From Escherichia phage vB_EcoM_ESCO47, in the sequence record OM386662.1: 64,000 bases of DNA; one strand, written 5' to 3'. Both the position numbers and the translations under genes were made by a program. Position 1 is the stretch's first letter. Each line of letters begins with the position of its first letter. The notes under the pieces were generated by a model. The model ran no database searches, was not told where the DNA came from, and worked only from the letters and a program-made list of their open reading frames with translations. Of this stretch, positions 2,840-32,224 are shown piece by piece.

Positions 2840-3391
2840 TTATCTGAAGATATTTATCACTCTTTTAAAAAATGATTTTCGTTCTTTTTCTGGCCATGCC
2901 GGGAATTCGCCACCTAAATGCTCATGCTTTTCATAAAGAGCAAAGAAACGTTTAAGATTCTGGTAATAGAATTTCTCGTCTTTATTTGCAACAGAAGCTT
3001 CAACCAAATTAGACAAGACTTGGTACTCTTTAAAAAGTTGATCAAGTTTTCTATTTCTAAGAGTCAAACGTTTATAACACTCATCCTCTTTCCAGCCGCC
3101 ATCTATCCAAAGATCAAACTCGCCAGGCTCATCAAATGTTGCACCCTGTAAGCTTCCTATACTATCAATTTTAACGGGTTGTTTATCGAAGGTCCAAGCT
3201 AGTTTACCGCGATGATCTTCTTCGTAAATCCAATCTTGAATGCGTTCGTCAAAAACAATCGCATATCCTTCTTTATGATCAAGTGGTTTTTTAGTTGTAG
3301 AATGCGCCGGGAGCCCAATGCCTTTAACAGGTTTATATGTTTCTTCTTTATAAAATTCTTTAGTGTCAAAATAGTAGTGGTAAATTTTCAT
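2840..3391 (-). CDS. 38: gp38, T4-type long tail fibre assembly chaperone
   Basis: 183 aa (same as T4 gp38), MKIYHYYFDTKEFYKEE N-terminus; directly downstream of gene 37. Confidence 0.85.
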   Translation of the reverse strand: MKIYHYYFDTKEFYKEETYKPVKGIGLPAHSTTKKPLDHKEGYAIVFDERIQDWIYEEDHRGKLAWTFDKQPVKIDSIGSLQGATFDEPGEFDLWIDGGWKEDECYKRLTLRNRKLDQLFKEYQVLSNLVEASVANKDEKFYYQNLKRFFALYEKHEHLGGEFPAWPEKERKSFFKRVINIFR

Positions 3392-3422
3392 TATTATAAA
3401 GGGCCCGAAGGCCCTCTCCTTA
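3389..3422 (-). promoter_or_regulatory. split ribosome-binding site of gene 38: SD, UUCG hairpin, 9 nt, AUG
   Basis: mRNA reads UAA GGAGA GGGCC-UUCG-GGCCC UUUAUAAUA AUG; hairpin 3401-3414. Confidence 0.65.
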
Positions 3423-6400
3423 AGCTAAACGAACGATATAGTTAAACGCAACGTTTTTAACAGTGTTCTCTGTATTACCTGTTGCGTTAACTGTTATTGT
3501 GTGACTATGTGAGCCTAATGCAACGGTGTGTGTATGAGCACCAATACCTACAGTATGCGTATGAGCACCAACGGCCACGTTATGTGTATGTGCTCCAGCC
3601 GAAGCAGCAGTACCAGATAAAGAGTGACTGTGGTTGCCCTGACTGTCTGTTTTCGCACAATAACCAGCTCCCTGCTGGTTGGTTCCTTTAACCGTGGATA
3701 CACTTGCCGGAATGGTTACTGTTCCGTATTGGCTCCAACCACTACTGCTCATCCTTAAACCATCTGTGTGAGCATGGGCGCCGGTTGAGTTTGTGGAACC
3801 GCTCAGACTATGTGTATGCGCACCAGCTGAAGCAGCAGATTTGGTACCGTAGTCAAAACTCGAACTTGTCTTAGTACCGTAGTCAAAACTTGACGACGTT
3901 TTTGTACCTAGATCAACCGAGTTAGAAGAAGCACTATGGGTATGAGATTTAACACCATCTGCTTCTGTACTCAACACTGCACGACCACTCGGTTTACCTT
4001 TAATAGTTTGTCCACGCATATCAGGAATAGTTCCTGAAGTATATACTGCACCTAATTTAGGATACGCCGCTTTGTCAAAAGTCTGGCCTTCCATAATAGC
4101 ATAACCCACAGGAGGTGTATCAGTTGGCCATGGAATCGGAGCACCAATCGGATAACTAGAGATGATATCCGTCTTAAGACTATTTATCGTCGTATTTAGG
4201 TTAGCAAAGTTACCAGTACCACCTGTGATATTACCATCAGTACCAATTATAACGGTATTAATTTCAATTTTATTAGGTGAACGGAACGAGCCATCACGTC
4301 TAAATTGCCATGCTAAATCCGCCTTTTGTGGACCTGTTGAATCATTATCACCGCCTTCATGATAGTGAATTCTAAAATCACCCGTACTAATTAATGTACC
4401 CAAAGAATAACAACTATCGCCCTGGACATATCGTTGTTTCAAAATAGGAACGTAAGTACTTGTATCTGTACGATTAATATTCATGTAGAATGGGGCACGA
4501 ACATTTTCATTATTTTGCGAGACAAATGAACCAGCCCCTGCTGGTTTAACAATATCAGTACATTCAGCATCAATATATGTCGACTGCCCTAATTGCATAC
4601 GGAAATTAGGACTTATACGCGAATTAGTGGTCAACACAACGAGTTTTGTATCATTGTCTACGGTGACCATATTACCGCCGGCACCATCATCACCTAATGT
4701 AACGGTATGACGCATTTGTACCATGCCATTATTAAGACTAATACTTAATGGGCGGAGATTACTTATTCCACCGCTTTCACCAGCATCTTTGGGAGTTGGA
4801 ATAATATGCAATGCTGCTTCAGAGCGGCGGAAAATAGCACCGTATTCGGCATTCCAAATTCTTAATGCATCATTAGTTCCACCAATTTTAACTTGACCAC
4901 TAATAGAAGAACCGCCTGTTAAACTAAGTCCATTGCTCATGGTAACTGCACCATTTAAAGTGCTCAAACCATCAACTTTAAGACTTCCTGCAGTGTTAAT
5001 AGAGCCGTTAGCATTAACTTGTCCATTGAACTGGGATACAACAGGCCCAGTAGTTTCAGAGCCACTTGGAGCCATACGCTGTGAATAAAAATAATATCCT
5101 TGTCCATCAGAAACTTCGAATACTGTTTCGCGCGCTTTGTCACCGGTAGCATTAAAACTATTACCCCAAGCTTTAACAGTCACATAACTTTTATTCTGTC
5201 CTGCTCTAGAACCAGCTTCCCACAAGATTTGTTTTGTGCCGTCTACCCCTGTAGGAGCTTTAAATGTTAAAGCCGACGTATTATCGTCACCTGCAAAATA
5301 CATGCCGGATCGTATAGAAATACGTTGGGTTGAATAGATGGTACCATCAGCCCTAAGATTTAATTCATTATTACCGGTTTTGATGTTTAATATGCCAGGT
5401 TCAACAATAAGACCCTCGGACATAGATACTGCCATACGTCCTGTGCCACGGAAATAATGATAAAACTTACCATTACTATTATACCCAAGATGAGTTTGTC
5501 CATCACCGTTAGCATTACCATCAGGAGTTGTTTGAATTGTTAAAACAGAAGCGTTATTTCCAGGCATTACCCAGGTGGCACCAGAGTCATCTGAGCGACC
5601 GACAGTCAAACGTTTCGTACTTAAAAATACCCCATTTGTTAAAGTCGCAGTAGAAGTACCTTGTGCAACAAAATCAATTTTACCTGAAGCGATAGATTTG
5701 AATCCAGTAGATGGGTCCCCTAGAACTATATAACATTCGCCCATAGCGCCAGTTGAACCATAGTTATTAATGTTTTCATCTGCGGTAATTGTGCCAATTG
5801 CGAGAGAACGACGTAATACTAAAGATCCATCATTACGAAGACCCATCCGTTTATTAATCGCGGTGTCACCTGTCCACCAAGAAATCTCTTCGCTTTTACC
5901 AGTTTGTGAAGAAACTAATTCATGATAAATCGTGCCGCCGGATTTTGCGCGGAATTTACGAAGATAGTTAATACCGTTTTCTTCACCTGTGCCAGGATAA
6001 ACATACTGAACTAATGATTGCGAATCGTATTGTCCAAATGCTTTTGTGTCTAAAACAATGGTTTTCGTATTAACTTGTGGAGCAGAAACTATACCAGTAG
6101 CGGAGTTAATATTGCCTGACGCAGAAATATTACCTGTTGCAACAACCAAGCTACCAGAATCAACCGTAAATCCACCATCGCGTCGGAAAGTCCAATATTT
6201 CGAAGTGCCTGTTTCATCAATATAATGCATCTTCATTGAGCCTTCATTAACTAAGGTCCCTAATGAGAAAGTACCATCTTTATAACGTTGCTTAATTAAC
6301 GGGTTATATTCTGAAGTAGCGGTTGATGCGGAAATATCCATGAAAATAGGGGCTTTTGCCGTGTGTTGACCGGCCCAAGAACCAACTCCGGTGCCCTTAT

Positions 6401-18268: not shown

Positions 18269-20524
18269 ATGCAAGTAACTAAGAGCAGTGGTGTATCCCA
18301 AAATTTTGATGCACAGAAAATTATTCAAGTCTTAACTTGGCAATGTGAAGGAACACAAATTGACCCATATGAATTGTACGAAGAAATTAAGACCCATCTT
18401 GTCGACGGGATGAGCACCAAAGATATCCAGAAGATTTGTATTAAAGTTGCAGCTAACTCGATTTCTGTCGAAGAACCTGATTATCAGTATGTCGCTGCCA
18501 AAGGGCTAATGTTTGCACTTCGTAAAGATGTATATGGGCAGTTTGAACCGCCTGCTTTTATCGACCATATTTCTTATTGTGTTAATGAAGGCAAATATGA
18601 TCCTGAGTTGTTGTCTAGATATTCTGCAGAAGAAATCATTTATCTTGATTCTCGGATTAAACATGAGCGAGATTTTGATCTGACTTATGCTGGTGCTATG
18701 CAGCTTAAAGAAAAATACCTGGTTAAAGATAAAACAACTGGTAAGATTTATGAAACTCCACAGTTTGCTATCATGGCTATCGGTATGGCCTTACATCAAG
18801 ACGAAACTCATGACCGTTTGAAACATATTATTCGTTTTTATGATGCCGTTTCTACTCATCAAGTTTCATTGCCTACTCCAATTATGGCAGGTGCTCGTAC
18901 TCCGACTAGACAGTTTTCCAGCTGTGTAGTTATTGAATCCGGTGATTCGTTGAAGTCTATTAACAAAACGTCAGCATCAATTATCGAATATATTTCCAAA
19001 CGAGCTGGTATTGGTATTAACGTTGGTATGCTTCGCGCTGAAGGTTCTAAAATTGGCATGGGTGAAGTGCGTCATACAGGTGTTATTCCGTTCTGGAAAC
19101 ATTTCCAAACAGCAGTAAAATCTTGTTCTCAAGGTGGTATTCGTGGTGGTGCTGCAACCGCATATTATCCGATGTGGCATTTGGAAGTAGAGAACCTGTT
19201 AGTTCTTAAAAATAACAAAGGTGTTGACGAAAACCGTATCCGTCATATGGACTATGGAATTCAGATTAATGACCTTATGATGGAACGCCTTGGTAAAAAT
19301 GATTATATTACTTTATTTAGCCCTCACGAAATGTCCGGCGAATTGTATTACTCGTTCTTTGAAGACCAAGATAAGTTCCGTGAGCTTTATGAAAAAGCAG
19401 AAAAAGACCCGGCAATCAGAAAGAAACGAATCAAAGCATTAGAACTTTTTGAATTGTTTATGACTGAACGTTCAGGTACTGCTCGAATTTATCCACAGTT
19501 TGTTGATAACACGAATAACTACACTCCGTTTATTCGTGAAAAAGCTCCAATTCGTCAGAGTAACTTATGTTGTGAAATCGCTATTCCGACTAATGATGTT
19601 AACAGTCCTGACGCTGAAATTGGTTTATGCACGTTATCTGCTTTTGTATTAGATAAATTTGATTGGCAAGACCAAGATAAAATTAATGAACTTGCTGAAG
19701 TACAAGTACGTGCACTTGATAACCTGTTAGACTATCAAGATTATCCGGTTCCAGAAGCTTTAAAAGCTAAAAAGCGTCGAAATCTCGGTGTCGGTGTTAC
19801 TAACTATGCAGCTTGGTTAGCTTCTAACTTTGCCTCATATGAAGATGCTAACGATTTGACCCACGAATTATTTGAGAGATTACAGTATGGACTCATTAAA
19901 GCTTCAATCAAGTTGGCCAAAGAAAAAGGACCTTGCGAGTATTATTCAGACACTAAATGGTCTCGAGGCGAATTACCTATCGACTGGTACAATAAAAAGA
20001 TTGACCAAATCGCAGCTCCAAAATACGTTTGTGACTGGTCGGGGCTACGTGAAGACCTTAAGCTCTTTGGCATTCGCAACAGCACATTATCAGCTCTTAT
20101 GCCATGTGAATCAAGCAGCCAGGTTTCCAACTCTACAAACGGTATCGAGCCTCCACGTGGTCCGGTAAGTATTAAAGAATCTAAAGAAGGTAATTTCCGC
20201 CAGGTAGTTCCTAATATCGAACACAACATTGGTCTTTATGACTACGCCTGGAAACTTGCTAAGAAAGGTAATAAACCTTATTTGACTCAAGTTGCTATTA
20301 TGTTGAAATGGGTATGTCAATCGGCTTCAGCCAATACGTACTACGACCCAGAGAATTACGAGAAAGGTAAAGTGCCAATGTCTGTAATGCTTGACGATTT
20401 GCTTTACTTCTGGTACTTCGGCGGTAAAAACCTCTACTATCATAATACTCGCGATGGTTCTGGTACTGACGACTATGAACTAGAAACTCCAAAAGTTGAT
20501 GATTGTTCAGCTTGTAAGCTTTAA
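18269..20524 (+). CDS. nrdA: ribonucleotide reductase large subunit
   Basis: 751 aa; class Ia RNR alpha motifs (..NLCCEI.., C-terminal CxxC tail). Confidence 0.95.
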   Translation: MQVTKSSGVSQNFDAQKIIQVLTWQCEGTQIDPYELYEEIKTHLVDGMSTKDIQKICIKVAANSISVEEPDYQYVAAKGLMFALRKDVYGQFEPPAFIDHISYCVNEGKYDPELLSRYSAEEIIYLDSRIKHERDFDLTYAGAMQLKEKYLVKDKTTGKIYETPQFAIMAIGMALHQDETHDRLKHIIRFYDAVSTHQVSLPTPIMAGARTPTRQFSSCVVIESGDSLKSINKTSASIIEYISKRAGIGINVGMLRAEGSKIGMGEVRHTGVIPFWKHFQTAVKSCSQGGIRGGAATAYYPMWHLEVENLLVLKNNKGVDENRIRHMDYGIQINDLMMERLGKNDYITLFSPHEMSGELYYSFFEDQDKFRELYEKAEKDPAIRKKRIKALELFELFMTERSGTARIYPQFVDNTNNYTPFIREKAPIRQSNLCCEIAIPTNDVNSPDAEIGLCTLSAFVLDKFDWQDQDKINELAEVQVRALDNLLDYQDYPVPEALKAKKRRNLGVGVTNYAAWLASNFASYEDANDLTHELFERLQYGLIKASIKLAKEKGPCEYYSDTKWSRGELPIDWYNKKIDQIAAPKYVCDWSGLREDLKLFGIRNSTLSALMPCESSSQVSNSTNGIEPPRGPVSIKESKEGNFRQVVPNIEHNIGLYDYAWKLAKKGNKPYLTQVAIMLKWVCQSASANTYYDPENYEKGKVPMSVMLDDLLYFWYFGGKNLYYHNTRDGSGTDDYELETPKVDDCSACKL

Positions 20525-20575
20525 GAATTTTAATTATAATTGACTCATGGATGAGTCACTATTGAGAGAATATAA

Positions 20576-21754
20576 ATGAGTACAGTTTTTAATACACAAC
20601 AAGTTGATGTTTTGAACGAACCTATGTTCTTCGGTTCAGGTCTCGGTCTTGCACGTTACGATATTCAACGACATAAAGTTTTTGAAGAGCTTATCGAAAA
20701 GCAGCTCTCGTTCTTTTGGCGTCCCGAGGAAGTAAACTTGATGTTGGATTCAGCCCAGTTTAATAAGCTTCCACAGTTCCAACAGGACATCTTTACCAAC
20801 AACCTTAAGTATCAATCATTATTAGATTCTATCCAAGGCAGAGCACCATCTGCGGTACTTATGTCATTGCTTTCAGACCCTTCATTAGATACATGGGTCG
20901 CTACATGGACTTTCAGTGAAACTATTCACTCTCGTTCATATACTCATATTATGCGAAATCTTTATACAGATCCATCGAAAGTATTTGATGAGATTGTATT
21001 AGATGACGCAATTATGAAGCGTGCCGAATCTATCGGACGATATTATGATGATGTTCTGGTTAAAACTCGAGCTTGGGAAAATTCTAAAGAATTTGTAGAA
21101 CAAGCTAAAGAATCTCCTGATGCCGACCTTCGTTTAAACCAAGCTATTAAACAAGAGTCTGAAGCTAAACGAGACCTAATGAAATCTCTTTATCTTTGTT
21201 TGCATGTCATCAATGCATTGGAAGCTATTCGTTTTTACGTGTCTTTTGCTTGTACTTTCAACTTCCATAAGAATATGGAAATTATGGAAGGCAATGCGAA
21301 GATTATGAAGTTCATTGCTCGTGATGAACAGCTCCACCTCAAGGGCACTCAATATATTATTCGTGCTTTACAAGACGGTGAAGACGGTGATGAATGGGTC
21401 AAAATTGCTCAAGAGTGTGAACAAGAAGCAGTTGATATTTTCATGGAAGTTAACGCTCAAGAAAAAGAATGGGCTGAACACTTGTTTAAAGATGGTGCTC
21501 TTCCAGGCCTAAATGTTAAAATCCTAAGTGAATTTGTAGATTATCTAACCGTGTCTCGTATGCGTAGTTGCGGTCTACCATGTCCTCTTAAAGACATATC
21601 AACTCGTCATCCTATTCCATGGATTCGTGAGTATTTGAACTCTGATTTGGTTCAAGCTGCACCACAAGAAGTTGAGATCAGTTCTTATCTTGTCGCTCAA
21701 ATTGATAATGACGTCAACCAAGATGTAATAAATTCATACAAAAAATATTTCTAA
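20576..21754 (+). CDS. nrdB: ribonucleotide reductase small subunit, uninterrupted
   Basis: 392 aa contiguous; di-iron ligand-like ExxH regions. Confidence 0.95.
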   Translation: MSTVFNTQQVDVLNEPMFFGSGLGLARYDIQRHKVFEELIEKQLSFFWRPEEVNLMLDSAQFNKLPQFQQDIFTNNLKYQSLLDSIQGRAPSAVLMSLLSDPSLDTWVATWTFSETIHSRSYTHIMRNLYTDPSKVFDEIVLDDAIMKRAESIGRYYDDVLVKTRAWENSKEFVEQAKESPDADLRLNQAIKQESEAKRDLMKSLYLCLHVINALEAIRFYVSFACTFNFHKNMEIMEGNAKIMKFIARDEQLHLKGTQYIIRALQDGEDGDEWVKIAQECEQEAVDIFMEVNAQEKEWAEHLFKDGALPGLNVKILSEFVDYLTVSRMRSCGLPCPLKDISTRHPIPWIREYLNSDLVQAAPQEVEISSYLVAQIDNDVNQDVINSYKKYF

Positions 21755-21784
21755 GGAAGGGACTTAGGTCCCTCTTATATTATG
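21753..21784 (+). promoter_or_regulatory. candidate split RBS of denA: SD, hairpin, 8 nt, AUG
   Basis: AAGGA 21753-21757, hairpin AGGGAC-UUAG-GUCCCU 21758-21773, CUUAUAUU, AUG 21782. Confidence 0.45.
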
Positions 21785-22192
21785 AAAGATATCGCCGCAG
21801 AATATTCTTTTATTAAATATACAGAGTTAGAATTATTGGAAGACGCGACAATTAAAACGGTTGAAGTCCCTAATAAGAAAAACGTTATCTATGCGATTGT
21901 AATAGATGATGAACTCATGTATATTGGTAAAACTAAGAATCTAAAGAAACGCATTAACTATTATCGAACTGCTATAAATCGAAAAGACCAGACTTCAGAC
22001 TCTAGAAAATCTTTAATGATTTTAGACGCGTTAATGCAAGGTCTAAAGGTCGAATTCTGGGCCCGCCAATGTTTCGACCTATCGGTCACCAACGAACTCG
22101 GTTCTATGACCATCGCAACGATGGACCTTGAAGAGCCACTGTTTATTAAGAAGTTCAACCCGCCTTGGAATATCCAATACAAGAAAAAGTAG
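21782..22192 (+). CDS. denA: endonuclease II (GIY-YIG)
   Basis: 136 aa (T4 length); IYAIV..YIGKT..YY GIY-YIG motif. Confidence 0.9.
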   Translation: MKDIAAEYSFIKYTELELLEDATIKTVEVPNKKNVIYAIVIDDELMYIGKTKNLKKRINYYRTAINRKDQTSDSRKSLMILDALMQGLKVEFWARQCFDLSVTNELGSMTIATMDLEEPLFIKKFNPPWNIQYKKK

Positions 22193-22221
22193 TTTACATA
22201 CCACATGGACTGTGGTATAAT
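22192..22221 (+). promoter_or_regulatory. early promoter for rnlA
   Basis: GTTTAC 22192-22197, TGTGGTATAAT 22216-22221. Confidence 0.65.
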
Positions 22222-22238
22222 TTTTAAAAATCAAATGA

Positions 22239-23372
<1,134 letters not shown>

Positions 23373-23374
23373 TG

Positions 23375-23404
23375 GTTTACAAACGCCAAGGATGGTGTTA
23401 CTAT
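23375..23404 (+). promoter_or_regulatory. early promoter for alc
   Basis: GTTTAC 23375-23380, TACTAT 23399-23404. Confidence 0.6.
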
Positions 23405-23432
23405 GGACATATCAATTACCTAGGAGAACATT

Positions 23433-23933
23433 ATGAACATGCAATTGATTACTAATGATATGGTTGTAGCAGCATTTGGGGATTCAACCGACGGCATCCA
23501 AGTCTTTAAGAAAGGACGTGCAGTTGGTTACCTCACTGATCTTCGTACTACCCTGGCTAAAAATGCTAAAAAGAAGGTGAAGCAAAAGGAATACTCTACA
23601 CGATATGTTGAAGAAAAACGCGAAGCAATGCCGGAAGCAGTAAACGCAATGGTAGAGTTCCTTCAAAACAATCTGTCTAAATATGACGCTAATGTGTTCA
23701 TTAATATTAGTCAACCTAATGTTCATATTGCTGATAACAAATTTTATATCATTTGCGATCCTTTGTCTGATAAATTCAATCGTCTCGGAATTTCAAGCCC
23801 TTATCATACAGCAGAAGAGTTGTGTGTACTGTTTGAGACTTATAAAATCCAATGTGATGGTCCTAAGACAGTCTTGATTAATGGTTTGTCCCGAGACGAA
23901 ATCATTGAGATTATTGAAAAATGCTTAAAGTAA
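23433..23933 (+). CDS. alc: Alc, inhibitor of host transcription on dC-DNA
   Basis: 166 aa, position between rnlA and spanins as in T4; early promoter. Confidence 0.75.
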   Translation: MNMQLITNDMVVAAFGDSTDGIQVFKKGRAVGYLTDLRTTLAKNAKKKVKQKEYSTRYVEEKREAMPEAVNAMVEFLQNNLSKYDANVFINISQPNVHIADNKFYIICDPLSDKFNRLGISSPYHTAEELCVLFETYKIQCDGPKTVLINGLSRDEIIEIIEKCLK

Positions 23934-24277
23934 ATCCGATTTATGCTGTCATCGGAGCATTTGCTCTGGTTTCAGTGGTTACAATAGTTTTCTTAAATCA
24001 TAAAGTTGACTCGTTAACAACCGAATTGACCACAGTTAAACAGGTCGCTAAAAACAACGCTGAAGCGTTAGATTCATTCAAGATTCAATATGAGTCCATT
24101 AAAACCATGACTTATAAGAATCAGGCATTAGTTGAGCAAATTAAGGCTGAAAATGAAAAACTCCGGAAGGATGCGAAGAAGAGCAGCGTGGTGGCAAAGA
24201 AACCAGGACTCGTCGAGAACCAAATCAACAAGTCCTTTAACGCCTATGCAGAAGACCTCAGGAAGCTTTCAGAATGA
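23921..24277 (+). CDS. i-spanin (inner-membrane spanin, pseT.3-type)
   Basis: 118 aa; N-terminal TM segment AVIGAFALVSVVTIVFL then coiled-coil-like periplasmic domain; adjacent lipoprotein gene. Confidence 0.7.
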   Translation: MLKVNPIYAVIGAFALVSVVTIVFLNHKVDSLTTELTTVKQVAKNNAEALDSFKIQYESIKTMTYKNQALVEQIKAENEKLRKDAKKSSVVAKKPGLVENQINKSFNAYAEDLRKLSE

Positions 24278-24564
24278 TTAAATTATCTGTACTTGTATTA
24301 TCTATTGGTCTTTTGGTTGGATGTGCTCAGGACATTCCTGTAAGCCCTAAAGAGACTTTACACCCATCATGGCCTAGTCCTATTGCAGAGTATAACCAAA
24401 AATGGCAAGTTAAAGTCATTGACGGTATTCCATGGGTAGGTATGCCTTTTGAAGACTCTCAAGAATTCCGAATCTGGATGAATGACGTAAAAAGATATGT
24501 ACATGACCAGAAAACTATGATATGTTATTATCGTAGTGGTTTAAAAGAGGACAAATGCAAATGA
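24274..24564 (+). CDS. o-spanin (outer-membrane lipoprotein, pseT.2-type)
   Basis: 96 aa; signal peptide with lipobox LVGC (MIKLSVLVLSIGLLVGC), Pro-rich; overlaps i-spanin stop. Confidence 0.7.
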   Translation: MIKLSVLVLSIGLLVGCAQDIPVSPKETLHPSWPSPIAEYNQKWQVKVIDGIPWVGMPFEDSQEFRIWMNDVKRYVHDQKTMICYYRSGLKEDKCK

Positions 24565-24779
24565 CACCTACTCAACTAGAACATCTTAAAGGGTTGATCT
24601 ATGAGTCTGAAATGGCCGCAATGATTTACGGACGGCAGATTCAACGTTTAGAATCTTTACCTCCTTCAGGTGACCCACTGATAGTTCAGTCTAGAGCTAA
24701 TCTTAAAAATGAGTACCAAAACAAGTGGGGCAAAGCGGCCAATGCACTTCATGAGTACATTCAAACTCTAGTAAAATAG
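24555..24779 (+). CDS. hypothetical protein (pseT.1 position)
   Basis: 74-aa ATG ORF. Confidence 0.55.
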   Translation: MQMTPTQLEHLKGLIYESEMAAMIYGRQIQRLESLPPSGDPLIVQSRANLKNEYQNKWGKAANALHEYIQTLVK

Positions 24780-24826
24780 TTGTACAAACTCTTGGGAGCA
24801 GAGTATAATGCTCCTATGGACAATAA

Positions 24827-25743
<917 letters not shown>

Positions 25744-25744
<1 letters not shown>

Positions 25745-25935
25745 TGAAACTATTATATGAAGTGATTGAGGCCATCGAACAGCATAAAGAATATTTGTTT
25801 GTAGCCTGGCCTTTAGTAAATGGACAGTTCGGTATTGATGTGCTGGACTATGAGCATGAAGAACGTTTGGACGGTGGTATATTTGATAACGTCGACCAGG
25901 CAATTGAATGGTTAAATGAAAACTATGTACGATAA
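25744..25935 (+). CDS. hypothetical protein (cd.x)
   Basis: 63-aa ORF. Confidence 0.5.
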
Positions 25936-26140
25936 ACATCATGAAATCGAAGATGAAGCATACAAAATGCTTCGTAAACTAGTGGGACTTAATATGAGTC
26001 CTACATTAATCAACAAACTCGCAGGAATTCGTAATGATCTGAATACTCGTTACAAAGGCGAATATCATGTAGAGTTTGTTCCTGTAGGTGAACCGACCGA
26101 GCGATTTGTTGTTCGAGTTAAAGTAAATACTGTACACTGA
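25916..26140 (+). CDS. hypothetical protein (cd.x)
   Basis: 74-aa ORF. Confidence 0.5.
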   Translation: MKTMYDKHHEIEDEAYKMLRKLVGLNMSPTLINKLAGIRNDLNTRYKGEYHVEFVPVGEPTERFVVRVKVNTVH

Positions 26141-26147
26141 GGTAATT

Positions 26148-26423
26148 ATGTTCCCAACTTATTCTGAAATTGTAAAGGTAGTCTTCAGTCAGATTATTGC
26201 TAATAATATGTTTGAAGTGCTTGATAATGCAGCCGAACTCAGAGTTCATGCTCAACTAACTCATGTACTCAATGCTTTGCTCCCGGACCAAGTAGATTCT
26301 ATTGCTATTACTCTTCTCCCTGGGTCTGCACACGTCATAGTGGTATTTGATCTTGACGGCGATTTAGTTATCCAATGTGATATCAATTTCGGTACACAAA
26401 AAATTGAATGCAAAGCAATTTAA
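26148..26423 (+). CDS. hypothetical protein (cd.x)
   Basis: 91-aa ORF. Confidence 0.55.
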   Translation: MFPTYSEIVKVVFSQIIANNMFEVLDNAAELRVHAQLTHVLNALLPDQVDSIAITLLPGSAHVIVVFDLDGDLVIQCDINFGTQKIECKAI

Positions 26424-26425
26424 TG

Positions 26426-26455
26426 GTTTACAACATGGTGGAGTTGTGATACTAT
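26426..26455 (+). promoter_or_regulatory. early promoter
   Basis: GTTTAC 26426-26431, TGTGATACTAT 26450-26455. Confidence 0.6.
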
Positions 26456-26483
26456 AACTCTACCAACAAATGAGGAAATAGAA

Positions 26484-26720
26484 ATGCTAAGTGAAAACCC
26501 AATTACAGTACACGAATTTCAGATTAAAGTAAAAGAATTTGCTCAAGCACTCATCAATAAAGTGTCTGAACGTTTCCAAGATGCAACATTACGAGTTATT
26601 CAAGAATCTCCACGTTCTTTTCTCATAATCGTTAATCCTAAAGACGGTGACCAAATTACTAATCTTAAATTAGGCAGTGATGGTCTTGTTGAAGCAACTC
26701 GAGTATATGGAACACTATAA
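26484..26720 (+). CDS. hypothetical protein (cd.x)
   Basis: 78-aa ORF with early promoter and GAGGA SD. Confidence 0.55.
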   Translation: MLSENPITVHEFQIKVKEFAQALINKVSERFQDATLRVIQESPRSFLIIVNPKDGDQITNLKLGSDGLVEATRVYGTL

Positions 26721-26828
26721 TGAGAGCTATCTCATTACTATCGAGAATGGTCATAAATCTGAGCACTACCAACTTAGCCTGTCTAATCCGGTTAAAGGTA
26801 TTGTTGTTTATATCTCCTAAGGATTGTT

Positions 26829-27821
26829 ATGTTACCTGTCATCAGAAAACTTATTTCTCCAAAAGAACTGGCTGAGATTATTCCTTTGTCGGAAGCTTAC
26901 GCATCACAAGTGGCTTCTCATCGCGAACAAGTTAATTCGATTATGAACGGTGAAGACCCACGCAAACTTATTGTTGTAGGTCCTTGTTCAATTCATGACC
27001 CTATTGCTGCTGTTGAATACGGCAAACGTCTGGCTGAACTTCAAACTCGTCTTCCTAATGTTCTGTTAGTGATGCGCGTTTATTTTGAAAAGCCTCGAAC
27101 TACCGTAGGTTGGAAAGGTCTTGTAAATGATCCATATCTTGACGGAAGTTTTGATATGAACCACGGTCTTATAGTTGCACGAACATTGTGTCGTAAACTT
27201 CTGCGTATGGGACTTCCATTAGCAACTGAAGTATTAGACCCATTCACGATTAAGTATCTTTCTGGTATTTTCTCATGGGTTGCTATTGGCGCCCGTACGA
27301 CTGAAAGTCAGACACATCGTGAAATTGCTTCAGGTCTACCGATGTGCGTAGGCTTCAAGAACGCAACCAATGGTTCTATTAAAGTAGCTACAGACGCGAT
27401 GTATAGTGCCGCCCAGCCTCATCGGTATATGGGTATGGACGTCGATGGTACTGTAGGCATTGTTGAAGCTGAAGGTAATCAGAATACGCATATCGTATTG
27501 CGTGGTGGGACTAACGGTCCGAACTATCATTCTTCTGATATTCAAGAAGCTTCTAACAAAGCAAGTGCGGTAGGTCTGAATCATTATGTAATGGTTGACT
27601 GTAGCCATGCAAACGCTGGTGGGTATTATAGCAATCAAATTGATATTGGTAAAAATTTAGCAGCTAATGATTTGGTCAAAGGAATTATGATAGAATCATT
27701 CCTACATGAAGGAAATCAAAAAATTTCTGATAATATGTCCTATGGCGTTTCCATTACCGATGCGTGCATCAGTTGGGAACAAACTAAAGAGCTGTTAACT
27801 TATATTAATAAGGTTCAATAA
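26829..27821 (+). CDS. 3-deoxy-D-arabino-heptulosonate 7-phosphate (DAHP) synthase, class I (AroG/AroF/AroH-like)
   Basis: 330 aa; near-identical blocks to recalled E. coli AroG: GPCSIHDP, RVYFEKPRTTVGWKGL, WVAIGARTTESQ.HRE.ASGL, VGFKN, CSHAN, ESFLHEGNQ, ITDAC; AAGGA SD; phage-like codon usage. Confidence 0.9.
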   Translation: MLPVIRKLISPKELAEIIPLSEAYASQVASHREQVNSIMNGEDPRKLIVVGPCSIHDPIAAVEYGKRLAELQTRLPNVLLVMRVYFEKPRTTVGWKGLVNDPYLDGSFDMNHGLIVARTLCRKLLRMGLPLATEVLDPFTIKYLSGIFSWVAIGARTTESQTHREIASGLPMCVGFKNATNGSIKVATDAMYSAAQPHRYMGMDVDGTVGIVEAEGNQNTHIVLRGGTNGPNYHSSDIQEASNKASAVGLNHYVMVDCSHANAGGYYSNQIDIGKNLAANDLVKGIMIESFLHEGNQKISDNMSYGVSITDACISWEQTKELLTYINKVQ

Positions 27822-28402
27822 TGAAAGCTAGCACATATCTTCAAATTGCTTATTTGATTTCTCAAGAATCAAAATGTTGTTCATGGAAAGTTGGTGCCGT
27901 CATTGAAAAAGATGGACGCATTATCTCTACTGGATATAATGGTTCACCTGCAGGTGGCGTTAACTGTTGCGAACAGGCATCCGAAAATGGTTGGTTGAAG
28001 AATAAACCGAGTCCGGTCATCGTTGCTGGACATAAAGAAGGCACTACGGCATTTGGACGGGCAGATAATTTTGTTTTGGCTAAAGAACATCGAGCGGCTC
28101 ATAGTGCATGGTCTGCTAATAATGAAATCCATGCTGAACTGAATGCAATTTTATTTGCAGCTCGTAAAGGTAATTCTATTGAAGGTGCTACGTTGTATAC
28201 GACGCTTTCTCCGTGTCCTGATTGCACTAAAGCTATTACACAGTCGGGTATTAAAAAGGTTGTATACGCAGAATTATATGACAGATCTCCTGAAAATTGG
28301 GCAGACATTCTTAAACAAGCTGGTATTGAAGTAATTCAGTACTCTCGTAATAATCTTCGTTCTCTGAATTGGGAACAAATCCGAAACTTTTGTGGTGAAT
28401 AA
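27821..28402 (+). CDS. cd: dCMP deaminase
   Basis: 193 aa (T4 length); zinc motifs HAELNA and SPCPDC. Confidence 0.95.
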   Translation: MKASTYLQIAYLISQESKCCSWKVGAVIEKDGRIISTGYNGSPAGGVNCCEQASENGWLKNKPSPVIVAGHKEGTTAFGRADNFVLAKEHRAAHSAWSANNEIHAELNAILFAARKGNSIEGATLYTTLSPCPDCTKAITQSGIKKVVYAELYDRSPENWADILKQAGIEVIQYSRNNLRSLNWEQIRNFCGE

Positions 28403-28403
28403 T

Positions 28404-28700
28404 ATGATTTTAACTGAACAAGAAACTACGGTTCTTCGTGAACGTATTAAAACTATTCTGTCTGTAGGCGTTCATTGTGTTGTATTTGAAAAGGCTAATG
28501 GTGATGTTCGTACGATGTTTGCCTCCCGCGATGAACTTGAAGTCAAATATGAAAATAGAAATCCGGCAACAGAAGTTCGTTCTGAACCTCGTGAATCAGT
28601 TCGAGCATTCGATACCAAGTTAGGTCAGTGGCGTTCTTTTCGCCTTGATAAAGTAATTTCGGTTGATGGTACTCCGGTAGAACGTTTGCTTCTTCTGTAA
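28404..28700 (+). CDS. hypothetical protein (31.x position)
   Basis: ORF 28392 starts at GTG; first ATG at 28404 gives 98 aa. Confidence 0.5.
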   Translation: MILTEQETTVLRERIKTILSVGVHCVVFEKANGDVRTMFASRDELEVKYENRNPATEVRSEPRESVRAFDTKLGQWRSFRLDKVISVDGTPVERLLLL

Positions 28701-28702
28701 TT

Positions 28703-28727
28703 TGCTTTACGTTTAATATGTTATTAT
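28703..28727 (+). promoter_or_regulatory. MotA-box middle promoter for gene 31
   Basis: TGCTTTA 28703-28709, TATTAT 28722-28727. Confidence 0.45.
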
Positions 28728-28757
28728 TAATCTATCGTTAAACAAAAAGGAAATAAG

Positions 28758-29090
28758 ATGTCTGAAGTACAACTCCCAATTCGTGCTGTTGGTGAATATG
28801 TTATTCTGGTTTCTGAACCCGCTCAAGCAGGTGATGAAGAAGTTACCGAATCAGGACTTGTGATTGGTAAACGTGTTCAAGGTGAAGTTCCTGAACTATG
28901 TGTAGTTCATTCTGTAGGTCCTGATGTTCCTGAAGGTTTCTGTGAAGTTGGTGATTTGACTCCACTACCAGTTGGACAAATTCGAAATGTTCCACATCCA
29001 TTTGTGGCTTTAGGACTTAAACAACCTAAAGAAATTAAACAGAAATTTGTCACTTGTCATTACAAAGCAATCCCGTGTCTTTATAAGTGA
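28758..29090 (+). CDS. 31: gp31, GroES-like co-chaperonin
   Basis: 110 aa; [34 protein letters not shown] matches recalled T4 gp31; MotA-box middle promoter upstream. Confidence 0.9.
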
Positions 29091-29216
29091 TATAAATAAT
29101 AATATGAATTGAGTTCCAATTCTATGAGGTAGTCTACAACTGAGAGATCTGTCGAAAGAAGATGAAATTCAGAAGAACGTGACTACCAAGTTTTAATCTC
29201 TAACGAGAATTTTTAA

Positions 29217-29465
29217 ATGATTAAACAATTACAACACGCTCTCGAACTGCAACGCTCTGCATGGAACAACGGTCACGAAAACTACGGTGCATCAATTGAT
29301 GTTGAAGCCGAAGCACTGGAAATCCTGCAGTATTTCAAACATCTGAATCCTGTCCAAGCTGATCTTCGTGATGTTCTGGCTCAGAAAGATGAACTGAAAT
29401 ATGCTAAGCCTCTGGCTTCTGCCGCACGTAAAGCAGTTCGTCATTTTGTTATTACTTTGAAATAA
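29217..29465 (+). CDS. rIII: RIII lysis-inhibition accessory protein
   Basis: 82 aa (T4 RIII length), position downstream of gene 31. Confidence 0.75.
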   Translation: MIKQLQHALELQRSAWNNGHENYGASIDVEAEALEILQYFKHLNPVQADLRDVLAQKDELKYAKPLASAARKAVRHFVITLK

Positions 29466-29628
29466 TTGCTATCATGCGTCAGCAAAAGGTTAGCTGTGTA
29501 AGTCATGGTAGGTATGATGACAGGTTTATGGTTATCCTGTCGGTAAATATACAAAACCTATGTTCCCCTCGAGGGCTTACGCAGGCAATGTCAATAAGTC
29601 CTGCATTTTCATTTAAAGAGAATTTATA

Positions 29629-29808
29629 ATGGCAAAACAAGCTAAAGCAAAGAAAGCAGTTGAAAAGAAAGTTGATGGTACCTCTAAACGCGCTGGATAC
29701 AAGCGTGGGTCGAACTCTCGTATTAATCAAACCGTTGAGAAGATCATGCGCAGAGCACGTGCAGTTCTTCGAGATGATGCTTCTCGTTTTGGAAAGGTTG
29801 TTGCATAA
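29629..29808 (+). CDS. small basic protein (59 aa)
   Basis: ATG with AAGAGA SD, Lys/Arg-rich, followed immediately by a UUCG hairpin terminator; below the ORF-track size cutoff. Confidence 0.45.
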   Translation: MAKQAKAKKAVEKKVDGTSKRAGYKRGSNSRINQTVEKIMRRARAVLRDDASRFGKVVA

Positions 29809-29813
29809 TTTTA

Positions 29814-29835
29814 GGGAGACTTCGGTCTCCCTTTT
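29814..29835 (+). terminator. intrinsic terminator (identical hairpin to 15685)
   Basis: GGGAGAC-UUCG-GUCUCCC plus UUUU. Confidence 0.7.
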
Positions 29836-29872
29836 GTGCGTTTAGGGCAGAAAAAGTTTAAAAAAAAAAGAT

Positions 29873-29901
29873 GTTTACTCTCCTGTAGGATGTGTTACTA
29901 T
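29873..29901 (+). promoter_or_regulatory. early promoter
   Basis: GTTTAC 29873-29878, TACTAT 29896-29901. Confidence 0.6.
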
Positions 29902-29942
29902 AGACTTGTACCACCTAATCAATAAAACAACCGGAGAATAAA

Positions 29943-30314
29943 ATGAACACTATCAATTTAAATGCTACAATTAAATGCCGTGACCATGATGGATATAAAT
30001 CTCAAGTTGTTAACGAGTTACAGTGGATGGTTCGTTCAGTTCAAGGTGATGTGGTTTATTGTACAACTCCTGATGGCCCTTCAGACGATTTTTGTTATCA
30101 TATCGAAATCGAAAACTTTTTCACTGGTGAAATTTACCGTCTGAATTCTACAGTTTATGGCTGTATTCGTTCTAAAACTTACGAAGATGAAGAAACTGGT
30201 TACTCTGAAGATGTTGTATGGTACGAAAACGCCAGAAATCGCGCAGAGACATTAATCGAGAAGATTAAAGCAAAAGGTGTTATTGATTCAGCTAAGTGGA
30301 CAAAAATCAAATAA
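29943..30314 (+). CDS. hypothetical early protein (30.x)
   Basis: 123-aa ORF, early promoter and GGAGAA SD. Confidence 0.6.
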   Translation: MNTINLNATIKCRDHDGYKSQVVNELQWMVRSVQGDVVYCTTPDGPSDDFCYHIEIENFFTGEIYRLNSTVYGCIRSKTYEDEETGYSEDVVWYENARNRAETLIEKIKAKGVIDSAKWTKIK

Positions 30315-30318
30315 AAAT

Positions 30319-30347
30319 GTTTACTTTGGTACAGGATATGTTATTAT
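30319..30347 (+). promoter_or_regulatory. early promoter
   Basis: GTTTAC 30319-30324, TATTAT 30342-30347. Confidence 0.6.
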
Positions 30348-30388
30348 ATACCTGTACCAACAAACAACTTAAACATCTGGAGAATAAA

Positions 30389-30754
30389 ATGAACTACACC
30401 AACTTCGAACGCAAATATGTTTCTAACGGTATCGCTGGTTCTATTGATACGATTTGCTTATGGAAACATAACAATGGTTCAGTATGTGAAATTGAGCAGT
30501 ATATGACACCTAATTATGTTTATATGCGATTTGAAAATGGTATCACCCTTTCAATTACAATGGAAGGTTCCAACTTCAAAATCGCTCTGGATGATGACTT
30601 CCGTCAACGTGATTTAGGTACTCATCCTTGTTGGAATGGTGATAATCGTAAGCTTCTGGTTAAAACTTGGATTCGCCATATTCTGAGTAATAGAGCTAAA
30701 CCTGAACATCTTGAAGCAATCTTTGATGTAGTTCTTAACGAATTCGATATTTGA
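30389..30754 (+). CDS. hypothetical early protein (30.x)
   Basis: ORF 30296..30754; ATG at 30389 chosen because the early promoter and GGAGAA SD lie directly upstream. Confidence 0.6.
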   Translation: MNYTNFERKYVSNGIAGSIDTICLWKHNNGSVCEIEQYMTPNYVYMRFENGITLSITMEGSNFKIALDDDFRQRDLGTHPCWNGDNRKLLVKTWIRHILSNRAKPEHLEAIFDVVLNEFDI

Positions 30755-30765
30755 TCTAACAAACA

Positions 30766-30779
30766 GGGGCTTCGGCCCC
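30766..30779 (+). terminator. UUCG hairpin after ORF 30389..30754 (weak U tract)
   Basis: GGGGC-UUCG-GCCCC. Confidence 0.35.
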
Positions 30780-30795
30780 TATTGAGGAAATTAAA

Positions 30796-30990
30796 ATGAA
30801 TTTATTTGTATCGCAAACTGTCCGGTTAAAAGGCGATGGAATTCCCGGAATGATTTCTAAAGTGTTACCTGCATTTAAATTGGGAGATATTCAGATCAAA
30901 GAAACCTATGTGGTCTTATGGGTAGACGGTACTGAAGATGTTCGTATGGGTTCTGAATTAGCAGTAATCAAATGTTTAAAGCGAGGATAA
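30796..30990 (+). CDS. hypothetical protein
   Basis: 64-aa ORF with GAGGAAA SD. Confidence 0.45.
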   Translation: MNLFVSQTVRLKGDGIPGMISKVLPAFKLGDIQIKETYVVLWVDGTEDVRMGSELAVIKCLKRG

Positions 30991-30991
30991 T

Positions 30992-31102
30992 ATGATTAAG
31001 AAGCTAATCCAAAAATTGCTTGGCACTGAAATAGTTGAAGTTACTTATCGTGTGACTGACGTAAGCCCACGGACCCGAAATATTGGACCGTACTAAAACA
31101 AT
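30992..31102 (+). CDS. small hypothetical ORF (36 aa)
   Basis: ATG with GAGGA SD 6 nt upstream, fills gap; speculative. Confidence 0.3.
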
Positions 31103-31115
31103 TGAGAGATTCATT

Positions 31116-31952
31116 ATGAAACCCGTGATTTTAACCGATATTGATGGAGTATGTTTGAGCTGGCAGTCAGGTCTTCCATATTTTGCACAAAAATATAATC
31201 TGCCTTTAGAACATATCCTTAAAATGATTCAAGACGAAAAGTTTATTGCTCCTGGTAAACTTTTCAATACTGACGATAATCTTGGTAAACAATTAATCGA
31301 AAAATATAATTGTTCTGATTTTATTCGTTATTTAGCTCCATATACTGACGCTTTGCGTGTAATCAATAAGCTCAAATCCGACTACAATTTTGTAGCTGTA
31401 ACGGCTCTAGGTGATTCAATTGATGCCCGTTTGAATAGACAATTTAATCTAAACGCATTGTTCCCTGGCGCTTTCTCAGAAGTTATGATGTGCGGTCATG
31501 ATTCTTCAAAGGAACAATTGTTTAAAAAGGCTAAAGAGAAATATAATATTGTATGTTATGTCGATGATTTGGCTCACCACTGTGACCATGCATCAGAAAT
31601 TCTTAATGTGCCGGTATACTGGTTAGCTCGTGGTGAACGTGATGCAATTCCACGTACTGCACAACGTGTTTATACGTGGGACGATATTGAGCATCGTTTG
31701 GTTCCACCCGAGCATAATTCAGATTCAGATCGTGAAGACCTTTTAAAACGATTGGCGGATTTGCTTAAAGAATCCGGTGCAACAAGTCCAGGTGCGTGGC
31801 CTAATCAAATTGGCGCTCCGTCGAATCCGTATACCTGGCGAACCCCAGGACCAACCGATATGCAGCCTCATTGGCGATACACTAATGTAGGCGAACATCC
31901 TGTTCCTCCGTATTGGGCAGTTCCACAAGGTTACGGCACAACTAAGGGTTAA
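31116..31952 (+). CDS. HAD-superfamily-like protein with Pro/Trp/Tyr-rich C-terminal tail
   Basis: ORF 31083 starts at TTG; ATG at 31116 with GAGAG SD; N-terminal ILTDIDGV (DxDG HAD motif I); tail ..PGAWPNQIGAPSNPYTWRTPGP.. Confidence 0.6.
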   Translation: MKPVILTDIDGVCLSWQSGLPYFAQKYNLPLEHILKMIQDEKFIAPGKLFNTDDNLGKQLIEKYNCSDFIRYLAPYTDALRVINKLKSDYNFVAVTALGDSIDARLNRQFNLNALFPGAFSEVMMCGHDSSKEQLFKKAKEKYNIVCYVDDLAHHCDHASEILNVPVYWLARGERDAIPRTAQRVYTWDDIEHRLVPPEHNSDSDREDLLKRLADLLKESGATSPGAWPNQIGAPSNPYTWRTPGPTDMQPHWRYTNVGEHPVPPYWAVPQGYGTTKG

Positions 31953-31954
31953 TT

Positions 31955-32224
31955 ATGTTTGTAGTTCATGATATTACAGACGGCAAAAACACAACGCGTG
32001 ACTACGGTCATGTTAACATGTTCTTTCGAGACTGGCCATTGTTTCGTTCAGTAAAAGACGCAGAAATATTTAAAGAGTGTGTTGAACAAGGGTTCATCTA
32101 CATTTCAGAATATTATGTTGAAGGTCTCGGTAAATGGATTACAACTTATCAGAAAACGCTGAAATCGCTTCTAGATGAAGTGGCTTATAATAGAACCGTA
32201 ACCAAAATCGAGGACATCAAATGA
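31955..32224 (+). CDS. hypothetical protein (30.1 position)
   Basis: 89-aa ORF, stop overlaps gene 30 start. Confidence 0.55.
   Translation: MFVVHDITDGKNTTRDYGHVNMFFRDWPLFRSVKDAEIFKECVEQGFIYISEYYVEGLGKWITTYQKTLKSLLDEVAYNRTVTKIEDIK

Follow-up and report, generated by a model that had tools for sequence, protein, structure and literature searches.

The distal end of the T4 long tail fibre is formed by gp37, whose needle is an interwoven trimer in which each chain runs out and back; the stem has an outgoing part (residues 882-931) and a returning part (residues 960-1009), between which residues 932-959 form the tip proper (PMC9603124). Seven irons are coordinated in this structure by the histidines of HxH motifs (PMC6957217; PMC11705849). 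A receptor-binding family shared by T4 and lambda has been described over the last ~215 residues of these proteins (PMC9659904), and the side tail fibre of Ur-lambda (Stf), the distal part of which is structurally homologous to gp37, binds OmpC (PMC12617516).

A gene of this family is present in the stretch of DNA analysed here (64,000 nucleotides of Escherichia phage vB_EcoM_ESCO47, record OM386662.1; hereafter the window). Over its full length, the product of the open reading frame shares 55% identity with T4 gp37, and residues 2-242 of the T4 needle structure (PDB 2XGF) match its last 271 residues (aa 814-1084) with E=6.1e-88 in phmmer. A Collar domain ahead of the needle scores 41.8 bits (cutoff 24), while the match to PF03335 (Phage_fiber) is marginal (21.8 bits, cutoff 20, best stretch aa 1010-1023). 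The upstream reading frames share 61% and 81% identity with gp35 and gp36 of T4, respectively. Downstream, homologues of gp38 and of the holin t (both 76%) are followed by an asiA homologue on the opposite strand, the identities of gp35, gp36, gp38, t, and asiA to T4 spanning 61-81%, and the T4 gene order 35-36-37-38-t is kept. The 2XGF match, the Collar domain, and this synteny agree with the assignment to gp37 made in a preliminary description of the locus; the product is a T4-type gp37, and the region 3500-3933, on which that description focussed, encodes its needle.

Gene 38 lies directly downstream of gene 37, an arrangement common to T4, LF82-41, and GiZh. Its product gave no Pfam match at E<=0.01. 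A direct comparison with T4 gp38 (E=9e-107) identifies it as a T4-type chaperone, which would help the fibre to fold, and not a T2-type adhesin. The gap of 28 nt between the two genes holds a C(UUCG)G-type hairpin that folds at -14.2 kcal/mol and is flanked by GGAG and the gene 38 ATG; T4 has an equivalent arrangement, the stem of its hairpin differing slightly. In the phage collection, no record spans at least 80% of the length of gene 37, and the best-covering Tequatrovirus records are only ~87% identical to a 12-kb piece of the window.

Table 1. Features of the gene 37 locus, given in window positions and gp37 residues (HxH motifs by their first residue).
Feature	Window position	Strand	gp37 residues	Basis or remark
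Gene 38, T4-type tail-fibre assembly chaperone, 183 aa	2840..3391	-		T4 gp38 comparison
C(UUCG)G-type hairpin	3398..3417	-		between genes 37 and 38
Gene 37, distal long-tail-fibre subunit, 1084 aa	3420..6674	-		ORF; T4 gp37 homology
Collar ('knob') domain	4002..4145	-	844-891	Pfam PF07484, E=1e-10
Outgoing needle-stem half (60 aa; T4 50)	3765..3944	-	911-970	T4 882-931 alignment; HxH 1-3 and GTK units
Three 10-residue GTK units	3828-3917	-	920-949	
GTK unit 1	3888-3917	-		10 residues
GTK unit 2	3858-3887	-		10 residues
GTK unit 3	3828-3857	-		10 residues
Receptor-contacting head ('tip') subdomain, lambda-Stf type	3651..3764	-	~971-1008	homology to T4 932-959
Returning needle-stem half	3474..3650	-	~1009-1067	HxH spacing; HxH 4-8
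9g-like lineage tract within LF82-41-like flanks	3519..3878	-	933-1052	segment identities
HxH1	3936-3944	-	911	
HxH2	3810-3818	-	953	
HxH3	3768-3776	-	967	
HxH4	3624-3632	-	1015	
HxH5	3582-3590	-	1029	
HxH6	3555-3563	-	1038	
HxH7	3528-3536	-	1047	
HxH8	3501-3509	-	1056	

Eight HxH pairs are located within the last 174 residues of the protein (window span 3501-3944), and every one of the 16 histidines in the last 175 residues belongs to such a pair. The preliminary description had counted six or more, having overlooked KSHTHS and GNHSHS. It had also likened the array to the metal-binding needle of T4, and when aligned with 2XGF, 7/7 T4 HxH positions (883, 915, 929, 966, 980, 989, and 998) find a match: every iron-site motif of T4 is kept in register, and one additional 9-residue His box is present. 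Each HxH, contributed by all three chains, would coordinate one iron ion octahedrally on the fibre axis, so that from its eight motifs the fibre of the window phage should carry eight irons per trimer compared with seven in T4. For the unit itself, a literature search found no publication that uses the phrase 'His box'.

By homology with the T4 tip, three chains would extend from the collar to the end of the fibre, build a small receptor-contacting head there, and turn back, which would yield a six-stranded interwoven stem. The returning half of this stem has, after a 14-residue interval, four His boxes that are 9 residues apart (three intervals; T4 has two), and TRF detects a repeat in it at 3532-3597 (period 27, 2.4 copies, 76% matches). 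The region 3500-3933 had been called the receptor-binding tip as a whole; most of it is needle stem, and only the part at ~3651-3764 corresponds to the head. The GTK repeat likewise lies in the structural stem, outside the receptor-contacting head. An AF2 model of aa 809-1084, in which the interwoven trimer was treated as a single chain (31-sequence alignment), reached a mean pLDDT of 53 and a pTM of 0.27, the collar alone scoring 70-79 and the needle below 60.

Relative to T4, gp37 is extended from 1026 to 1084 residues, in agreement with the lengths given in the preliminary description. The 58 extra residues are distributed over the tip region (30), the shaft near aa 653 (11), and aa 63-190 (net 17). 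Those of the tip region are made up of one GTK unit (10), one His box (9), and an enlarged head (11), with the stem insertions located at aa 938 and aa 1027. The alignment with T4 gp37 that had been proposed as a check accordingly contains a 10-residue indel exactly at the repeat, so that the refuting outcome named with it, an alignment of the repeat free of indels, did not arise.

The head was compared over the 45 residues between HxH3 and HxH4. It is identical to that of LF82-41 at 43 positions, of 9g at 38, and of lambda Stf at 32, compared with 8 for T4. As the head is lambda-Stf-like, OmpC is the likely receptor of the phage, a prediction extrapolated from 71% identity over this 45-residue domain. 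The receptor is thus better predicted from lambda Stf and 9g, with their OmpC-type head, than from T4.

The outgoing half of the stem contains the three GTK units, which TRF reports as a period-30 array of 2.6 copies with 77% matches. A period-10 repeat with three units had been described correctly (TRF; aa 920-949), the claim of an exact 30-bp duplication, however, does not hold. The peptide that had been reported twice is present once, and it is another 10-residue peptide that is exactly repeated, at aa 923-932 and aa 933-942. The DNA of its two copies is identical at 23/30 positions. Both copies start with GGT and end with AGT TTT GAC TAC, and in between copy 1 reads ACA, AAA, ACG, TCG, and TCA where copy 2 reads ACT, AAG, ACA, AGT, and TCG, all seven differences (7/7) being synonymous and including a TCG/AGT serine switch.

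A comparison with the gp37/Stf genes of LF82-41, 9g, lambda, TuIa, GiZh, JK45, and T4 places this repeat in context. Three units are present in all of them except T4, which has two. In the unit register, one window unit matches another at 15-19/30 bases, whereas unit 1 matches unit 1 of LF82-41 at 29/30, unit 2 matches unit 2 of 9g at 29/30, and unit 3 matches unit 3 of 9g at 28/30. The 9-codon His-box units behave similarly: compared with one another they share at most 20/27 bases, but units 5 and 6 share 26-27/27 with 9g (unit 7, 22/27). Because the GTK units match their counterparts in other phages far better than their own neighbours, the duplication is older than the split between myovirus, lambdoid phage, and Nonagvirus fibres, and the three-unit layout is old and widespread, with no recent origin by slippage, contrary to the earlier suggestion. 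That units 1 and 2 encode identical peptides is a coincidence arising from two lineages: unit 1 resembles LF82-41 save for one ACG-to-TCG (Thr-to-Ser) change, unit 2 is 9g-like, and the joining of the two lineages together with this one change accounts for the identity. More generally, identity of repeats at the peptide level is no evidence of recency, and a codon comparison is needed.

The joining of lineages is not limited to the repeat. Over the last 263 codons, the gene is 92% identical to LF82-41 at the DNA level, with the differences clustered. Segment A (aa 903-932) is 98% identical to LF82-41 and 69% to 9g, and segment B (aa 933-952) shows the reverse (70% and 97%). In segment C (aa 953-1022) both identities are high (99% and 91%), in segment D (aa 1023-1052) 9g is again the closer relative (74% and 93%), and segment E (aa 1053-1084) returns to LF82-41 (97% and 78%). 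One joint of the 9g-like tract lies within GTK unit 2, and the other separates His box 7 from His box 8. As segment B of LF82-41 is itself 93% GiZh-like, LF82-41 retains the 9g lineage in the head only, and the window retains it across aa 933-1052. By this pattern of identities, the tip is a recombination mosaic with joints in the GTK and His-box repeats. Another mosaic boundary is indicated in aa 100-200, a region with 14-17% identity to T4 and LF82-41 and 71% to GiZh. The proposal that recombination had acted on gp37 therefore stands for the tip as a mosaic of patches, and not for the origin of the repeat. We may speculate that the predicted side-by-side position of B and D in the stem is why both differ together.

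The two halves of the stem are also linked by number. The motif spacing was written as a string for 116 relatives and subsequently for 138, including IMG/VR contigs. A protein search that gave mostly E. coli prophage fibres, with a top identity of 74% among the 120 matches listed, served as a sample of the family, and many of the 138 sequences are close relatives of each other. Across the 138 relatives, the distance from HxH1 to HxH2 equals 12+10n residues, and the number of terminal 9-residue HxH intervals equals n. A single sequence has n=1 (L022), 98 have n=2 (T4 among them), 36 have n=3 (including the window, lambda, and 9g), and a single sequence has n=4 (P0093). Two apparent exceptions were encountered, of which one is an artefact (P0051, a frameshifted lambda Stf) and the other is real: the TuIa-like L009 has three units and only two 9-residue intervals, and unequal counts may hence be tolerated. 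The rule holds over 29 clusters of head domains, and 2:2 and 3:3 forms occur together in two of them.

A structural reason for this equality is suggested by T4, where the contacts G921-F970 and H929-G964 have been reported (PMC6957217). The identities of these residues were verified in the T4 gp37 sequence, and the contacts imply an antiparallel register with paired residue numbers summing to ~1892. In this register, the T4 GTK units (892-911) lie opposite residues 981-1000, that is, the 9-spaced His boxes. From these two contacts quoted from a paper and the count correlation, as opposed to coordinates, we infer that the GTK units of the outgoing strand pair with the His boxes of the returning strand. 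The units would thus form a constant structural part of the outgoing chain, situated next to the returning 9-residue His boxes, and the numbers of units and of His-box intervals would be kept equal, with 3 and 3 here and 2 and 2 in T4, making the stem of the window fibre one layer longer than that of T4. Since unit count equals His-box interval count in the 138 relatives, the stem appears to lengthen by whole matched layers. A stricter form of this idea is offered as a tentative suggestion that we consider possible but not probable: throughout the gp37/Stf family, each GTK unit would need one returning His box and its iron, length would change by whole layers (n=1-4), and apposed segments would be exchanged or co-selected together, as with the paired patches by which this allele differs from LF82-41.

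Other histories of the repeats have to be weighed against this account. The preliminary description read the repeat as a single 30-bp unit that had recently been duplicated by replication slippage or unequal recombination, thereby altering a host-range determinant. Two identical neighbouring 10-residue peptides, a period-30 array detected by TRF, and the lack of one unit in T4 at exactly the same place all speak for such an event, as do laboratory host-range mutants of T4 with duplications in the same part of gp37 that Tetart et al. reportedly described in 1996. The copies nevertheless differ at 7/30 bases, and their serine switch needs several steps. The same three units recur in lambda, 9g, TuIa, GiZh, JK45, and LF82-41 (the three-unit form is found in 36/138 surveyed relatives), each window unit agrees with a counterpart in some other phage at 28-29/30 bases, and the extra unit is paired with an extra His box ~100 codons downstream, where a single slippage could not yield both. 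A recent duplication is consequently very improbable. We consider concerted evolution, in which old units were made identical by recent gene conversion between units 1 and 2, to be equally improbable. It would fit the observation that the peptides are identical here when LF82-41 and 9g are each one residue off in unit 1 or 2; conversion would have copied the DNA, however, in which the identity is only 77%, and the two units have separate nearest relatives in LF82-41 and 9g. Gene conversion between the units was rejected on the synonymous differences between the copies. Finally, the clustering of HxH pairs might be a by-product of a low-complexity, repeat-rich sequence without any role in metal binding. 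Nothing specific favours this beyond the richness of the region in Gly, Ser, Thr, and His, and the explanation is hardly credible given that the seven iron-binding positions of T4 are conserved in register and that, in 31 aligned relatives, six of the eight motifs have histidines that are either invariant or conserved to at least 90% (the exceptions being HxH6, which belongs to the variable-number unit, and HxH5, of which the second His, H223, is invariant and the first is not listed). Moreover, eight HxH pairs were reached in 1 of 100,000 composition-preserving shuffles, on which basis chance clustering was rejected.

The old age of the three-unit layout being preferred, the equality of the two counts could still reflect inheritance only, if stem and head travelled as one recombination cassette and no structural need kept them matched. 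The 9g-like tract of the window does cover both stem segments as well as the head, many of the sampled sequences are closely related, and L009 shows a 3:2 mismatch. On the other hand, the rule is followed for n = 1, 2, 3, and 4 and in head domains from 29 different clusters, two of them with 2:2 as well as 3:3 members. The heads of LF82-41 and the window are 99% alike, yet both stem patches differ together, and the T4 contact data put the two segments side by side. Shared inheritance as the sole cause is therefore unlikely, though a more serious contender than a recent duplication or gene conversion. The strict pairing in number of GTK units and His boxes is in any case only a mildly new point. 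If the layer rule is true, and if it has not been stated before, it would provide a design rule for the engineering of fibre length and allow iron content to be read from sequence. In practice, the matched count allows stem length and iron sites to be estimated quickly from the sequence, and for the engineering of chimeric fibres, junctions are best placed such that both sides of the stem remain matched.

Taken as a whole, the locus very probably encodes a T4-type gp37 needle with a longer stem of eight motifs, an old three-unit layout, a head of the lambda/9g type, and a mosaic allele. The needle is an ordinary T4-type tip with features that are standard among T4/lambda fibres; the allele represents a new mosaic form within this well-known family of fibre tips. 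With the T4 needle (PDB 2XGF; collar D10 and stem/tip D11), it shares the collar, the predicted six-stranded stem with its HxH motifs as putative iron sites, and the GTK units, and with the T4 locus the 11-residue C-terminal end of gp37, the T4-type gp38 gene, and the order of the genes. It differs in a stem that is one layer longer (3 vs 2 GTK units, 8 vs 7 HxH) and in a head of unrelated sequence.

Ur-lambda Stf (orf-401/orf-314) shares the motif spacing of the window, H-10-u-10-u-10-u-12-H-14-H-48-H-14-H-9-H-9-H-9-H, and is 72.5% identical over 246 matched C-terminal residues. Unlike gp37, it serves as a side fibre in a siphovirus, its N-terminal part is unrelated, its chaperone is Tfa, and the DNA of the two tips is only ~71% identical. 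The closest tips are those of the Mosigvirus LF82-41 gp37 (93.5% protein, 91% DNA) and of the side tail fibre of the siphophage 9g, a Nonagvirus (85% protein, 87.5% DNA), both of which have the 3:3 stem layout and the head type seen here. The window combines the two. GTK units 2-3 and His boxes 5-7 resemble those of 9g; the head, and the sequence outside aa 933-1052, follow LF82-41. The N-terminal 500 residues of the window protein are not LF82-41-like. In T-even phages, work by Tetart and Krisch is said to have established that segments of the gp37 adhesin are exchanged by recombination at conserved His-box motifs. The joints of the present mosaic, located in or next to GTK and GxHxH motifs, resemble such exchanges. 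They differ in that it is the stem that diverges, in two patches enclosing a head with 99% identity to that of the nearest relative.

Within the tip of gp37, the distal subunit of the long tail fibre, departures from the nearest relative, the Mosigvirus gp37 of LF82-41, are confined to short patches (aa 863-882, 933-952, and 1023-1052). The latter two are 93-97% identical to the side fibre of siphophage 9g, and the prediction is that they lie next to each other once the stem has folded; the receptor-contacting head between them is 99% LF82-41-like. Along the whole of gene 37, identity to LF82-41 reaches 88-97% only from about aa 500 on, and the N-terminal shaft segment (aa 100-200) shares 71% identity with the fibre gene of GiZh as against only 14-17% with T4 and LF82-41 gp37. 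These identity shifts, at aa 100-200 and around aa 500, mark additional mosaic boundaries in gene 37.

Features in and next to gene 37 (window coordinates)
Feature	Position	Strand	Basis
64-aa ORF antisense to the His-box (HxH) region	3497-3691	+	open reading frame
Tip patches differing from LF82-41	within 3519-3878, and 4029-4088	minus	comparison with LF82-41
N-terminal shaft segment, gene 37 aa 100-200	about 6075-6375	minus	identity comparison
Hairpin GGGCC-UUCG-GGCCC	3398-3417	minus	-14.2 kcal/mol fold

The antisense ORF is most likely a side effect of the repetitive codon pattern of the coding strand and not a gene.

Among the 138 relatives surveyed, the stem-length series extends from one GTK unit (the 10-residue repeat of the outgoing strand), one nine-residue His-box interval, and four HxH motifs in L022 to four units, four intervals, and a total of 10 HxH motifs in P0093. 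The sole real departure from the rule that both counts match is the TuIa-like fibre tip of IMGVR_UViG_3300030021_000020 (match 1501-2310), which has three GTK units versus two nine-residue intervals. This mismatch could stem from real slippage that deleted 27 bp, from a faulty assembly, or from the allele being defective.

The phage appears to be of the T-even type without a close sequenced relative in the phage collection searched: records covering most of the 12 kb at 20000-32000 (the nrd, RNA ligase, and pnk region) are about 87% identical to it, and no record in the collection covers at least 80% of the length of gene 37.

On the minus strand, the hairpin lies between the gene 37 stop codon (3420-3422) and the ATG of gene 38 (3389-3391), the downstream chaperone gene, and is enclosed in the approximately 24 nt that separate a GGAG from this start codon. 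It looks like the known device that moves a distant Shine-Dalgarno sequence near the AUG. The gene 37/38 gap of T4 has an equivalent layout, but its stem reads GGGC-UUCG-GCCC.
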